The notes: generated by a model from the letters alone, not told the origin. DNA of 10,818 bases from a virus (IMGVR_UViG_3300029816_000030), one strand, 5' to 3'; shown: positions 5,943-10,293, numbered from the stretch's first letter. Numbers and translations are program-made.

Positions 5943-5948
5943 TCTAAC

Positions 5949-6023
<75 letters not shown>

Positions 6024-6139
6024 ATCCTGGAACTCGGCTACCTGATTTTCATTCTGCACTGAATATCGAGAGAAGCTCTCTTTATTCGAGCCGGTAAGCG
6101 AACTTATCGTCTCGGGCTACGCCATCGCGTGGCCGAAAT

Positions 6140-6224
<85 letters not shown>

Positions 6225-6232
6225 GGACTTGA

Positions 6233-6308
<76 letters not shown>

Positions 6309-6310
6309 AC

Positions 6311-6387
6311 TGGACCGCCACCGGGGACTCGAACCTCGCACACTCAACTTAAAGGGTTGACGCTCTTTCCTGATGAGCTAGTGGCGG
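6311..6387 (-). tRNA. atypical tRNA or tRNA-like gene (anticodon loop CCUUUAA, predicted anticodon UUU/Lys, with C33 and C1-G72)
   Basis: 77 nt, CCGCCACTAGCTCATCAGGAAAGAGCGTCAACCCTTTAAGTTGAGTGTGCGAGGTTCGAGTCCCCGGTGGCGGTCCA; perfect 7-bp acceptor stem, D stem GCTC/GAGC, anticodon stem TCAAC/GTTGA, T loop TTCGAGT, one A-C mismatch in the T stem, encoded CCA. Position 33 is C rather than the near-invariant U. Confidence 0.5.
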
Positions 6388-6388
6388 C

Positions 6389-6464
6389 TGGTGGCCCTTG
6401 CTGGATTTGAACCAGCGACCTGGCGATTATGAGTCGCTCGCTCTCACCACTGAGCTAAAGGGCC
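6389..6464 (-). tRNA. tRNA with CAU anticodon, ileX/ileZ-like (probable tRNA-Ile2 reading AUA after lysidine modification; elongator Met not excluded)
   Basis: 76 nt, GGCCCTTTAGCTCAGTGGTGAGAGCGAGCGACTCATAATCGCCAGGTCGCTGGTTCAAATCCAGCAAGGGCCACCA; anticodon arm core GCGACUCAUAAUCGC and acceptor C4-G69/C5-G68 match E. coli ileX as I recall it. Confidence 0.85.
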
Positions 6465-7716: not shown

Positions 7717-8766
7717 TTACCCGAGCACGCCGGTTGCAAAGGCGTGATCAAGAAAACGAAAAATTAAATCAATCTGGGAACCATGCTTTTCTTCGAACGC
7801 CAGCGGATCCGCATGAAGCTCGTTGTGATGCTCCCGACACAGCGGTAGCGTGAAAATATCGTGGGCCTTTGTTCCCATCCCTCCCTGACCGTGACCAATC
7901 AGGTGATGGGGATCGTCGGCTGGCTGACCACAACACGCACACGGCTGTGTCTTCACCCAGCTCGTATATTTCTCATTTACCCAACGGCGACGTTTAGGTC
8001 GCCTCATGAAAGATTCCGGAGACTCCGGATCAACGGTAATGCTGACCACCGCCTTTTCCTGTGCTGGGTTCTGTGGCTGGTGGGTGTGAAGCAACGGCGC
8101 AAGATTTTTTGTGCGCTGCTTCAGTATGCTGGTGGCGGTCTGCTCTCCCGGTACGATGTCGCTTTCGCGGTACAAGGAGCGGATTTTTTCCGCACGCAAC
8201 CCCAGTGAACGACGTAATACAGCTTCCGGTAGCGCGTCCGCCACCTGATTGCGGACCGCCCACCAGGATAATTCAGCCAGAGATAATTCACGCTCCTGCG
8301 TACCGCTTATTGCGTGACCGATGACGTCAATCATCCATGCTGACAGGTTTTGATGAGCAAGTTGCTCGAGTGATTCGGATGTCTGGTCACGCAGCTGGTT
8401 GTCGCAGTGCCAGCACAACACCATTGCGCCGGTACCATAACGGTGAATGACGGTTTCACTGTGGTGATAATCACCGTGTGGCCACTGGCAGGATTTAACA
8501 TGGCGCAGTAACCAGTCAGACAATGCGCCAGCGCCACCAGCAGCACGAATCACACGCTCATTGCTGAAAAACCGCAGTAATGATTTATCCTCCGCCAGCG
8601 GCTGGCGAACGGCAGGGACGATGCCGGACGGCAGACCACGCATGCTTTTCGGTTCCGGCTCCACCAGCACTCGAGGGTTATGGAATACCTGCATGGATTC
8701 ACGGCCTGGTTTAAGGACCACCAGCCCAAGTTCCGGTACCGGAACAGGTCGAAGTAATACCCGCAC
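7717..8766 (-). CDS. DUF968-like protein (YdfU-like) with C-terminal HNH-like zinc-finger motif
   Basis: 349-aa ORF from a GTG start at 8766 with GGAGG 4 nt upstream (first in-frame ATG is codon 25); C-terminus CACCGQPADDPHHLIGHGQGG...LPLCREHHNELH resembles an HNH nuclease; same position as ydfU in Qin as I recall. Confidence 0.6.
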   Translation of the reverse strand: MRVLLRPVPVPELGLVVLKPGRESMQVFHNPRVLVEPEPKSMRGLPSGIVPAVRQPLAEDKSLLRFFSNERVIRAAGGAGALSDWLLRHVKSCQWPHGDYHHSETVIHRYGTGAMVLCWHCDNQLRDQTSESLEQLAHQNLSAWMIDVIGHAISGTQERELSLAELSWWAVRNQVADALPEAVLRRSLGLRAEKIRSLYRESDIVPGEQTATSILKQRTKNLAPLLHTHQPQNPAQEKAVVSITVDPESPESFMRRPKRRRWVNEKYTSWVKTQPCACCGQPADDPHHLIGHGQGGMGTKAHDIFTLPLCREHHNELHADPLAFEEKHGSQIDLIFRFLDHAFATGVLG

Positions 8767-8767
8767 G

Positions 8768-9046
8768 TTACCTCCAGATGCGTTGCTGGAATGTGCGGGA
8801 CGGACGCGGTGGGCGCTCGGAGTACGGCAGCCTGACGTAGATTATCCAGTGACGATAATCGAGGCTGAGGGCTTTCTTAACCTCGTATCCACGCCTGCGG
8901 TAACACTGAATTATCCATTCAGCCTGCTCTTCAGTGCATGGAGGATGCTGGAACCAGTCTGATTTGAATGCGTGAAAACGCCGTCCGCACCTGCTGGCAA
9001 AGACGGCAGAATCATTAGAATTGTGTAATTTGGTATCGTGCGCCAT
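8768..9046 (-). CDS. hypothetical small protein (92 aa from first ATG)
   Basis: ORF track gives 135 aa from GTG at 9175, but a strong terminator hairpin (9117-9145) lies inside that extension, so the internal ATG at 9046-9044 (MAHDTKLHNSN...) is more plausible; weak Shine-Dalgarno; Cys/His-rich (CGRRFH, PPCTEE, QCY). Confidence 0.4.
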   Translation of the reverse strand: MAHDTKLHNSNDSAVFASRCGRRFHAFKSDWFQHPPCTEEQAEWIIQCYRRRGYEVKKALSLDYRHWIIYVRLPYSERPPRPSRTFQQRIWR

Positions 9047-9116
9047 CGGTTGTCTCTGCTGGCGCAGCAGGTGCCAGTTGTTCAGGCTGGCGTGCGAATT
9101 GTAAACCAGAATGCCA

Positions 9117-9145
9117 GGAAAAAACAAAACCCGCCGAAGCGGGTT
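9117..9145 (-). terminator. rho-independent terminator downstream of hok
   Basis: On the minus strand: AACCCGC-ttcg-GCGGGTT followed by TTGTTTTTTCC; GC-rich 7-bp stem with tetraloop; located about 70 nt after the hok stop. Confidence 0.65.
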
Positions 9146-9213
9146 AAGTGCGGGTGCGTTGAGGATGCCTGACACATCAGAGGTGGCGAGGGATTTCTCC
9201 CCCGCCTGGTCTC

Positions 9214-9369
9214 TTACTCCTCAGGTTCGTAAGCTGTGAAGACAGCGACCTCCGTCTGGCCGGTTCGGATTCGTACCTCGCAGAGGTCTTTCCTCGTTAC
9301 CAGTGCCGTCACTATGACGGTTAAACAGATGACGATCAGGGCGATTAACATCGCCTTTTGCTGCTTCAT
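9214..9369 (-). CDS. hokD: Hok/Gef-family type I toxin (HokD/RelF-like, 51 aa)
   Basis: MKQQKAMLIALIVICLTVIVTALVTRKDLCEVRIRTGQTEVAVFTAYEPEE matches HokD/RelF as I recall it; ATG at 9369 preceded by AAGGAG Shine-Dalgarno; the ORF track's 70-aa version (to 9426) is an in-frame upstream extension. Confidence 0.8.
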   Translation of the reverse strand: MKQQKAMLIALIVICLTVIVTALVTRKDLCEVRIRTGQTEVAVFTAYEPEE

Positions 9370-9545
9370 AGCCTGCTTCTCCTTGCCTTTCGGCACGTAA
9401 GAGGCTAACCTACATGTGTTCAGCATGGATTGAGCCTCAGATTAATGTTAAGCGTCTTGCAGGACGCGTAATGTTAACTGGGGCTTTTCTCTATCTGCCT
9501 TTTGGTGTTCATGCCTGAGGCAGATAGCCTCAAGCACCCGCAGCA

Positions 9546-9574
9546 ATTCTACTTAACTCACGTCACCTCGCCAA
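9546..9574 (-). promoter_or_regulatory. candidate sigma70 promoter for the hok transcript
   Basis: Minus strand: TTGGCG (-35, 9574-9569), 17-bp spacer, TAGAAT (-10, 9551-9546); would give a leader of about 170 nt before hok and a transcript of about 400 nt ending at the 9117-9145 terminator. Confidence 0.35.
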
Positions 9575-9606
9575 TATGAAATCAATCAGAAAGGTGATCC
9601 ATAAAA

Positions 9607-10293
9607 TCACTCCTTCTCTTCTTTTCCGTAGTGGAGTTGGCCAATTTTGATAAGAGGGCGCCCCTGAGATTTGCGGTGTAGATTGGTATCGCGCAGAGAA
9701 TACACACAGCCACAATATTCCTGCTGATAGAATTTTTCGCGCTTGCTGATTTCAATCATACGGGACGAGCCGCCCTGCTTGCGCCAGTTATAATCCCAGT
9801 ACACCATACCCGGATAATGCGCAACAGCTCGCCGCCCACACTCGTTAACCTGCTGCATATTTTTCCAGCGTGAAATGCCCAGTGAACTGCTGATCACACT
9901 GAAACCATTTTCAGCAGCGTACAACGCTGTCCGCTCAAAACGCATGTCAAAACACATGGTACAACGGATCCCCCTCTCAGGCTCCCATTCCATTCCTTTG
10001 GCACGTTCAAACCAGTTGTCGGTGTCGTAATCAGCATCGATAAACGGCACGCCGTGTTGTTCAGCAAAGCGAATATTTTCATCCTTACGAATTAAATACT
10101 CTTTCTGAGGATGAATGTTCGGGTTGTAGAAAAAGATGGTGTAGTCGATTCCCGAGGCCTGAAGCGCCTCCATCACTTCACCGGAACATGGAGCACAGCA
10201 AGAGTGCAGTAGTAGTTTGTTTGCCCCGTTTGGGAGCTCCAATTTAGGCCGTTTGAAATCAGCAATAGTCATAAATATTTTTATTGGGGTCAT
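9607..10293 (-). CDS. QueH-like (DUF208) putative epoxyqueuosine reductase
   Basis: 228-aa ORF, ATG start (alternative ATG at codon 8); N-terminal [11 protein letters not shown] and C-terminal EYCGCVYS cysteine motifs as I recall for DUF208/QueH; no clear Shine-Dalgarno; flanked by 153-bp and 180-bp non-coding gaps. Confidence 0.5.

Follow-up and report, generated by a model that had tools for sequence, protein, structure and literature searches.

The hok/mok/sok (parB) locus of plasmid R1 is plasmid-borne, and post-segregational killing has been demonstrated for it. In the model developed for this locus, the full-length mRNA is closed by pairing between its tac and fbi elements, and the mok SD is paired to an upstream box called ucb (PMC9841398). 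The same model includes a metastable tac hairpin in the nascent transcript, slow trimming of the mRNA from its 3' end, refolding to an open form, Sok binding and cleavage by RNase III (PMC9841398).

A prophage-borne system, hokW-sokW of Sp5, has also been characterized experimentally. HokW is toxic and is neutralized by sokW expressed from its own promoter, and toxicity returns when the -10 element of sokW is mutated (Takada et al. 2021, PMC8621323). The antitoxin activity of sokW has a partial need for RNase III and Hfq (PMC8621323). After Sp5 is exposed to mitomycin C, sokW RNA is lost and HokW builds up, dependent on RecA, in the inner membrane (PMC8621323). Removal of hokW-sokW halves phage release, and HokW speeds both lysis and release (PMC8621323).

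Here we describe a locus of this type in a 10,818-nt viral sequence (IMGVR_UViG_3300029816_000030), which we refer to as the window. We consider it highly probable that positions 9574-9118 on the minus strand harbour a type I toxin-antitoxin cassette (hok/mok/sok, of the hokD/hokW type) that is intact. This kind of cassette is already known as the hokW/sokW type of lambdoid E. coli prophages, and it holds no novelty. A first-pass annotation, made from the sequence alone, had implied otherwise, but the locus type was annotated in 1999 (933W) and was tested experimentally in 2021 (PMC8621323). Prophage hok/sok cassettes are of current interest with regard to lysis timing, prophage maintenance and phage defence, and the locus presented herein adds no new principle to these subjects.

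The hok transcription unit and its leader

Sequence identity, family membership, predicted folds and covariation are the properties that we established directly for this cassette. The features of its hok transcription unit are as follows.

9574-9546, minus strand: promoter of the hok mRNA (-35 element TTGGCG at 9574-9569, 17-nt spacer, -10 element TAGAAT at 9551-9546)
9539-9120, minus strand: predicted full-length hok mRNA of about 420 nt, from homology and spacing
9438-9435, minus strand: mok SD, GAGG, 8 nt upstream of the mok ATG
9426-9424, minus strand: mok AUG, inside the Sok target region
9426-9214, minus strand: mok frame of 70 codons, in frame with hok and ending at the same stop, from the ORF call
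9382-9379, minus strand: hok SD, GGAG, read upstream of hok
9369-9214, minus strand: hok toxin gene encoding 51 amino acids, from Pfam PF01848 and the K-12 hokD alignment
9145-9118, minus strand: intrinsic terminator of the hok mRNA, AACCCGCTTCGGCGGGTT plus a T-run, from the consensus scan (hairpin at 9145-9128)

The Hok protein matches the complete HOK_GEF profile of Pfam (PF01848, positions 1-42 of 42) with 82.9 bits, where the cut-off is 22. It is identical to K-12 HokD at 51 of 51 residues, and the alignment shows no differences in the coding region. The mok ATG at 9426 adds 19 codons upstream of hok to give 70 amino acids in all. These codons had been noticed in the first-pass annotation as an in-frame upstream ORF overlapping the hok start; they are identical to the leader of the annotated MokW protein of 933W, and an in-frame arrangement of the same kind has been annotated for K-12 mokC.

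A candidate promoter and a terminator had likewise been proposed, and a consensus scan found both, returning one promoter-like and one terminator-like site on the minus strand. The -10 element aligns with TAGAAT, TATAAT and TATGAT of 933W hokW, K-12 hokC and R1-type hok, respectively. We set the mRNA start at 9539 by homology, given that the match to RF01794 begins there, and by its location 7 nt after the -10 element; the mRNA end is that of the terminator. The leader extends for 170 nt from this predicted start to the hok AUG, compared with an earlier estimate of about 180 nt.

In Rfam, the leader matches RF01794 with 120.5 bits (gathering score 59) across the full model (positions 1-157 of 157) at window 9539-9364 on the minus strand. 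The corresponding scores are 118.3 bits for K-12 hokC, 113.5 for 933W hokW, 109.7 for K-12 hokB and 87.2 for the hok locus of an R1-type plasmid, and therefore the window leader is as good a member of this family as are the reference loci.

The name of this Rfam family ('sok antitoxin, CssrC') calls for some care. Its match lies on the hok-sense strand and runs from the mRNA start to the hok AUG (window 9364-9539, minus strand). In the K-12 sokC reference sequence, the match is at 602-754 on the minus strand, whereas sokC is annotated at 653-711 on the plus strand. RF01794 describes the hok 5' leader and not the opposite-strand Sok RNA of roughly 60-70 nt, and because of this, automatic 'sok' calls are misleading in both strand and coordinates. 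It is mainly for annotation that our finding matters. In RefSeq/PGAP genomes carrying the exact sequence (window 9370-9545), only the hokD CDS is annotated, with no mok or Sok. Given that the label reads 'hokD' only, a reader who relies on K-12 could wrongly call the toxin unregulated.

The predicted Sok antisense RNA

On the basis of the identity of the cassette, the toxin is predicted to be kept in check by its own antisense RNA, for which we propose the following features.

9418-9488, plus strand: predicted Sok antitoxin RNA of 71 nt, from homology to sokW
9488-9418, minus strand: Sok target region of the hok mRNA (mRNA positions 52-122), which contains the mok SD and AUG
9383-9411, plus strand: putative Sok promoter (-35 element TTGCCT at 9383-9388, 17-nt spacer, -10 element TAACCT at 9406-9411), read from the sequence
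9452-9468, unstranded: clade-specific insert of 17 nt at the tip of the Sok hairpin (GCGUC/GACGC), without counterpart in the Rfam consensus

The plus-strand sequence at 9418-9488 is identical to the annotated sokW of 933W at 70 of 71 positions, with the one difference residing in a loop, and the target region is the perfect complement of the predicted RNA. It had been suggested beforehand that the plus strand may encode a Sok-like RNA around 9380-9480, and both the sokW match and the putative promoter at 9383-9411 speak for it. The predicted RNA begins with an unpaired 5' tail of 14 nt, continues in a long hairpin (9432-9486) and finishes in a U-tail (UUUU), although the 3' end may fall at 9493 if the annotation of K-12 sokC is taken as the guide. 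Its predicted folding energy is -30 to -31.6 kcal/mol, with a z-score of about -5. The hairpin reaches -31.6 kcal/mol on the plus strand versus -19.2 kcal/mol on the complementary strand, which folds more weakly because two G·U pairs of Sok become C/A mismatches there.

The R1-type locus carries TTGCGC-17-TATCCT at the same position as the proposed Sok promoter, and this position is also upstream of the annotated start of K-12 sokC. The -10 element agrees with the consensus at three of six positions. The consensus scan of the window picked up neither the Sok promoter nor the Sok terminator, owing to this poor -10 element and to the bulged hairpin, and both were placed by homology.

A 9-nt direct repeat reported in the first-pass annotation, TAATGTTAA, is indeed present at 9443-9451 and 9469-9477, on either side of GCGTC..GACGC (9452-9467). 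The window contains three copies of this sequence where 0.04 would be expected, and none of 200 shuffles reached three. The repeat corresponds to the two arms of the Sok hairpin, wherein UUAAUGUUA pairs with UAAUGUUAA through two G·U pairs. The 17-nt insert is common to 933W, Rac442, pHYM1 and Pantoea At-9b, and is not found in hokB, hokC, hokE or R1. Within this insert, the Pantoea At-9b plasmid locus exhibits a compensatory change from G-C to A-U. The extension may define a specificity or stability class of Sok that keeps the 2 to 10 hok/sok copies of a genome from acting on one another.

Folding of the hok mRNA

The checks suggested with the first-pass annotation included alignment of the locus to R1 and chromosomal hok loci and folding of the predicted mRNA. 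The alignment allowed us to map the equivalents of tac, fbi and mok, and the structural elements listed below are those revealed by the alignment and by minimum free energy (MFE) predictions.

9539-9528, minus strand: tac element, GGGUGCUUGAGG, at the mRNA 5' end (MFE partner 9152-9164)
9164-9152, minus strand: fbi element, CCUCAACGCACCC, in the 3' UTR (MFE partner tac)
9537-9511, minus strand: 5' metastable (tac) hairpin of 11 bp, GUGCUUGAGGC-UAUCU-GCCUCAGGCAU, from the MFE fold of the first 50 nt
9527-9518 with 9500-9491, minus strand: 10-bp stem of the closed form, CUAUCUGCCU/AGGCAGAUAG, from the MFE fold
9488-9481, minus strand: candidate ucb (anti-SD) box, AAAGCCCC, from analogy to R1 (PMC9841398) and pairing with the mok SD

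The 420-nt mRNA has an MFE of -175.9 kcal/mol (z = -8.67 relative to shuffles), and in this fold tac and fbi form 12 bp with one bulge. The exact complementarity between these regions is 9 nt (9149-9157 with 9534-9542), and their pairing is conserved across homologues, with hokB and R1 showing compensatory changes. The sequence at 9491-9499, CTATCTGCC, is the exact reverse complement of GGCAGATAG at 9519-9527. This is the 9-bp stem that had been noticed previously, and it has 10 bp in the MFE fold. A GAGGC hairpin said to compete with it also exists (plus-strand GAGGC at 9517-9521 and GCCTC at 9527-9531), but it is not the shorter of the two as had been described, given that it comprises 11 bp and is predicted to reach -19.9 kcal/mol in the first 50 nt of the nascent RNA. 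As modelled here, these competing stems are the known conformational switch of hok mRNAs, in which the metastable tac hairpin is exchanged for the closed-form stem. Together with the RF01794 match, the mok frame and the tac/fbi pairing, they substantiate the view that the locus has a regulatory architecture like that of hok/sok loci.

In the closed form, the mok SD (GAGG) is paired with AGCC of the AAAGCCCC box (mRNA positions 55-58 with 104-107 of the MFE fold). It is this pairing, along with the analogy to R1, from which we tentatively assign the box its role as ucb. The complementarity between tac and ucb amounts to 7 bp with one bulge. When the mRNA is cut back to 9166, the 5' tac hairpin re-forms in the MFE fold, and by constrained folding the cost of the open tac/ucb conformer falls from +21.3 to +6.9 kcal/mol. 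The MFE fold of this truncated mRNA keeps the local tac hairpin and the pairing of the mok SD with ucb, and does not adopt the open form. Because it stays closed, the activation step is not reproduced by thermodynamic prediction alone, and the predictions only partly support refolding after 3' truncation.

Two additional complementarities were observed. The mok start region (9414-9426) is 77% complementary over 13 nt to 9165-9177, just upstream of fbi, and these segments pair in the MFE folds of the full-length and truncated mRNAs alike. They would represent a second long-range contact that hides the mok AUG. A segment of the hok 3' UTR (9180-9191) exhibits 8-9 nt of complementarity, in two registers, to the -35 region (9561-9573). 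This contact could be relevant only for transcripts that read through from queH, and it may be due to chance.

Covariation was assessed with an alignment of nine loci: the window, 933W, Rac442, pHYM1, Pantoea At-9b, K-12 hokC, hokB and hokE, and R1-type hok. Standard base pairs occupy 87.5% of the cells, compared with 37-42% when the partners are slid by one to three columns. Nine pairs are changed on both sides, and none of 500 shuffles reached the observed covariation score. The tac/fbi helix (helix 1) is paired in 90.5% of cells across homologues and has two pairs changed on both sides; the R1 cells of this helix count as unpaired because MAFFT misaligned the R1 fbi, although a GGCGCUU/AAGCGCC pairing is visible by eye. 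For the 10-bp stem (helix 2), three pairs are changed on both sides, with A-U to U-A and C-G to U-A replacements across homologues. Given that the sample is small and in part closely related, the covariation backs the Rfam match and does not stand alone.

Genomic context and distribution

Within a lambdoid prophage, the cassette occupies the early-right (nin) region, with queH on one side and a DUF968 gene on the other, and is oriented in the same direction as Q. The exact 651-nt sequence is present in many extraintestinal pathogenic strains, including IHE3034 and UPEC 26-1, where the order of genes in the lambdoid prophage is QueH, hokD, a hypothetical gene, DUF968, RusA, Q, tRNAs and lysis genes. 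A search of phage records found the cassette in 110 of them. Of 5426 complete E. coli genomes, 4257 contain the 160-nt leader at a coverage of at least 80%; the median number of places is 2 and the maximum is 10.

Several observations on the neighbouring sequences can be added. The gene for a QueH epoxyqueuosine reductase (9607-10293, minus strand; Pfam 221.5 bits) ends about 32 nt before the hok -35 element. The consensus scan found no terminator-like site in the interval between queH and the hok promoter, and read-through from queH into the cassette is therefore plausible. Five tRNA genes (Met/CAT, Lys, Thr, Tyr and Gly) lie between Q and the lysis genes at 5949-6464 on the minus strand; the Met/CAT tRNA is annotated as Ile in IHE3034. 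The IHE3034 prophage is otherwise similar but has four tRNAs, and the stretch of the window that lacks a match there (6025-6232) contains the tRNA-Tyr gene (6140-6224). Since the prophage carries both queH and the tRNA cluster, genes for tRNA modification and for tRNAs are carried along together. A small ORF (8768-9046, minus strand) follows immediately after the hok terminator; in IHE3034 it is annotated as a hypothetical protein of 92 amino acids, and Pfam gave no match for it. If read at its longest (8768-9175, 135 amino acids from a GTG), this ORF would overlap the terminator and fbi.

One phage record, that of Actinobacillus phage vB_Apl-pPE4 (PP818812.1), carries the cassette at 98.2% identity over 94% of the query. 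This closeness is unexpected for a phage with a Pasteurellaceae host, and host misassignment, contamination or recent transfer are possible explanations.

Proposed mechanism and biological role

The window shows each sequence element of the R1 model. By analogy to the work on R1 and Sp5, we infer how the cassette is expressed and processed, that its RNAs are cleaved by RNase III, that its two reading frames are translationally coupled, and what its role may be. A constitutive promoter would produce the hok mRNA of about 420 nt, and in the nascent transcript the 5' tac element would be locked in its local hairpin. In the finished transcript, tac would pair with fbi and the mok SD would pair with the upstream box, and because of this proposed pairing the stable full-length mRNA would be neither translated nor bound by Sok. 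Slow 3' trimming would take off fbi, after which the 5' end would refold and the ribosome site of mok would open. Translation of mok, which is in frame with hok, would then allow translation of hok. The 71-nt Sok RNA, encoded on the opposite strand at 9418-9488, would cover the mok SD and AUG, thus blocking translation and marking the duplex for RNase III. Once the supply of Sok stops, the pool of stable mRNA would yield Hok, and damage to the inner membrane would follow.

The closest relative with direct evidence of function is Sp5 hokW-sokW, and by analogy the window cassette probably contributes to lysis and phage release. The cassette could instead, or in addition, serve prophage maintenance and phage exclusion. 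Plasmid hok/sok gives post-segregational killing and has been implicated in phage defence (PMC8621323, introduction), and it could be argued that the main role of a locus regulated in this manner is prophage addiction or abortive-infection defence rather than an aid to lysis. However, no enrichment of hok genes near defence systems was found (bioRxiv 10.1101/2025.08.07.668861). In earlier tests, chromosomal hok loci failed to bring about post-segregational killing (summarised in bioRxiv 10.1101/2025.08.07.668861), and this makes an addiction role uncertain. Moreover, the sole direct test of a close relative indicates a function in lysis and phage release (PMC8621323). We therefore regard a main role in addiction or defence as somewhat unlikely.

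We judge it very improbable that the cassette, although intact in sequence, is an inert passenger, as might result from a lasting lock on hok translation or a lasting excess of Sok. This explanation would fit the reports that chromosomal hokA, hokB and hokC gave neither post-segregational killing nor rifampicin activation (summarised in bioRxiv 10.1101/2025.08.07.668861) and that deletion of hokW-sokW has no growth phenotype absent induction (PMC8621323), as well as the closed MFE fold predicted for the truncated mRNA. It does not fit with the intactness of all regulatory elements, with the compensatory changes that maintain the helices, or with a leader that is carried by 4257 of 5426 genomes, often in multiple copies. 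Furthermore, the 95.7%-identical hokW-sokW locus frees HokW on induction, and phage yield goes up about two-fold (PMC8621323).

The placement of the cassette suggests one more idea. On induction, antiterminated early transcripts could read through the cassette and collide with convergent Sok transcription, and this read-through could give 5'-extended hok RNAs in which tac is no longer at a free 5' end. If true, read-through would provide a built-in switch that couples toxin release to prophage induction. This induction-coupled switch, and the linked idea of a specificity or stability class marked by the 17-nt Sok extension, are in our estimation distinctly unlikely.

The relBE-linked hokD gene of E. 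coli K-12

In the cryptic prophage Qin of K-12, hokD (relF) is part of relB-relE-hokD, with relE directly upstream. This copy is 98.9% identical to the window over 9120-9383 only, a region that spans the hok SD, hok, fbi and the terminator. Absent from the K-12 copy are the hok promoter, tac and ucb, along with the mok start, the Sok target and the Sok gene. The two sequences part at 9383/9384, at the edge of the Sok -35 element. A DUF968 gene comes after hok in both, and K-12 ydfU is 84.6% identical over window 7717-9063.

A tblastn search of the window with K-12 RelB and RelE produced chance matches only (E values of at least 0.6), the best of which is elsewhere in the window. This result and the RF01794 match bear out the first-pass reading that the HokD-like gene is preceded by a leader and not by relBE, and the relE remnant that had been named as a sign of a decayed operon was not found. 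Because the similarity to K-12 stops sharply at 9383, and because a full-length hok/sok leader lies upstream of this point in the window, we conclude that the leader was lost in K-12. Of the 5426 complete E. coli genomes, 1201 have the K-12 relE-hokD junction, in single copy and with at least 99% identity, which is what a single event would be expected to produce. The common form is the intact cassette and K-12 relBE-hokD is a derived, truncated form; it is the relBE-linked K-12 copy, not the window cassette, that is rearranged. A decayed relB-relE-hokD operon in the window, with a relE remnant upstream of a hok gene expressed by read-through only and devoid of antisense control, would explain the hok coding region shared with K-12 Qin, but the leader match, the K-12 alignment, the tblastn result and a junction that reflects change in the reverse direction refute this idea and leave it with almost no probability. 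Likewise, the alternative that an unrepressed membrane toxin resides in this region does not apply, given the matches to Sok, mok and the hok leader.

A RelE/ParE-RelB pair is present in the immunity region of the IHE3034 prophage (extract positions 5948-6426), on the opposite strand and about 4 kb from hok. We considered this pair as a source of the K-12 arrangement and rejected it, as it gave no tblastn match to K-12 RelBE at E values of 1e-3 or lower.

Comparison with known hok/sok systems

Elements of the R1 locus occur in the same order as in the window, namely promoter, tac, metastable hairpin, stem, ucb, mok SD, Sok promoter, hok and fbi. The two loci are also alike in their CUuUCUGCC/GGCAGAaAG stem, ucb AGCCCC, mok SD GAGG and Sok promoter TTGCnn-17-TAnCCT. 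In contrast, R1 Hok is only about 44% identical to HokW (PMC8621323), the R1 leader has a longer insert in the first stem-loop, and the sequence of the Sok hairpin differs from that of the window.

The K-12 hokC/mokC/sokC (gef) locus has the same architecture and a closely similar leader, in which GGGTGCTTGAGGCT is identical. Its sokC RNA starts with the same GTTCAGCAT as the predicted Sok RNA of the window and overlaps the mok start by 9 nt, but is 59 nt in length and is without the 17-nt hairpin extension. The 3' UTR of hokC is cut by IS186, and fbi is missing for this reason.

The corresponding loci of 933W (AF125520) and VT2-Sakai/Sp5 (AP000422) are 95.7% identical to the window at the nucleotide level from mRNA +1 to fbi. 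For 933W, mokW, hokW and a 'sokW antisense RNA' have been annotated since 1999. Its hokW locus has the same 17-nt Sok extension, tac, fbi and -10 element (TAGAAT) as the window. The window Hok is identical to HokW at 47 of 51 residues, with four differences at the C-terminus (TAYEPEE versus VDYESEK). The hok terminator of the window is also found in K-12 Qin and Rac442, whereas 933W is without this terminal hairpin. The two cassettes differ as well in their location, given that the 933W cassette is in a leftward-transcribed block at the far right end, and the window cassette, which shares the orientation of Q, is found in the nin region with queH and DUF968 on its two sides.
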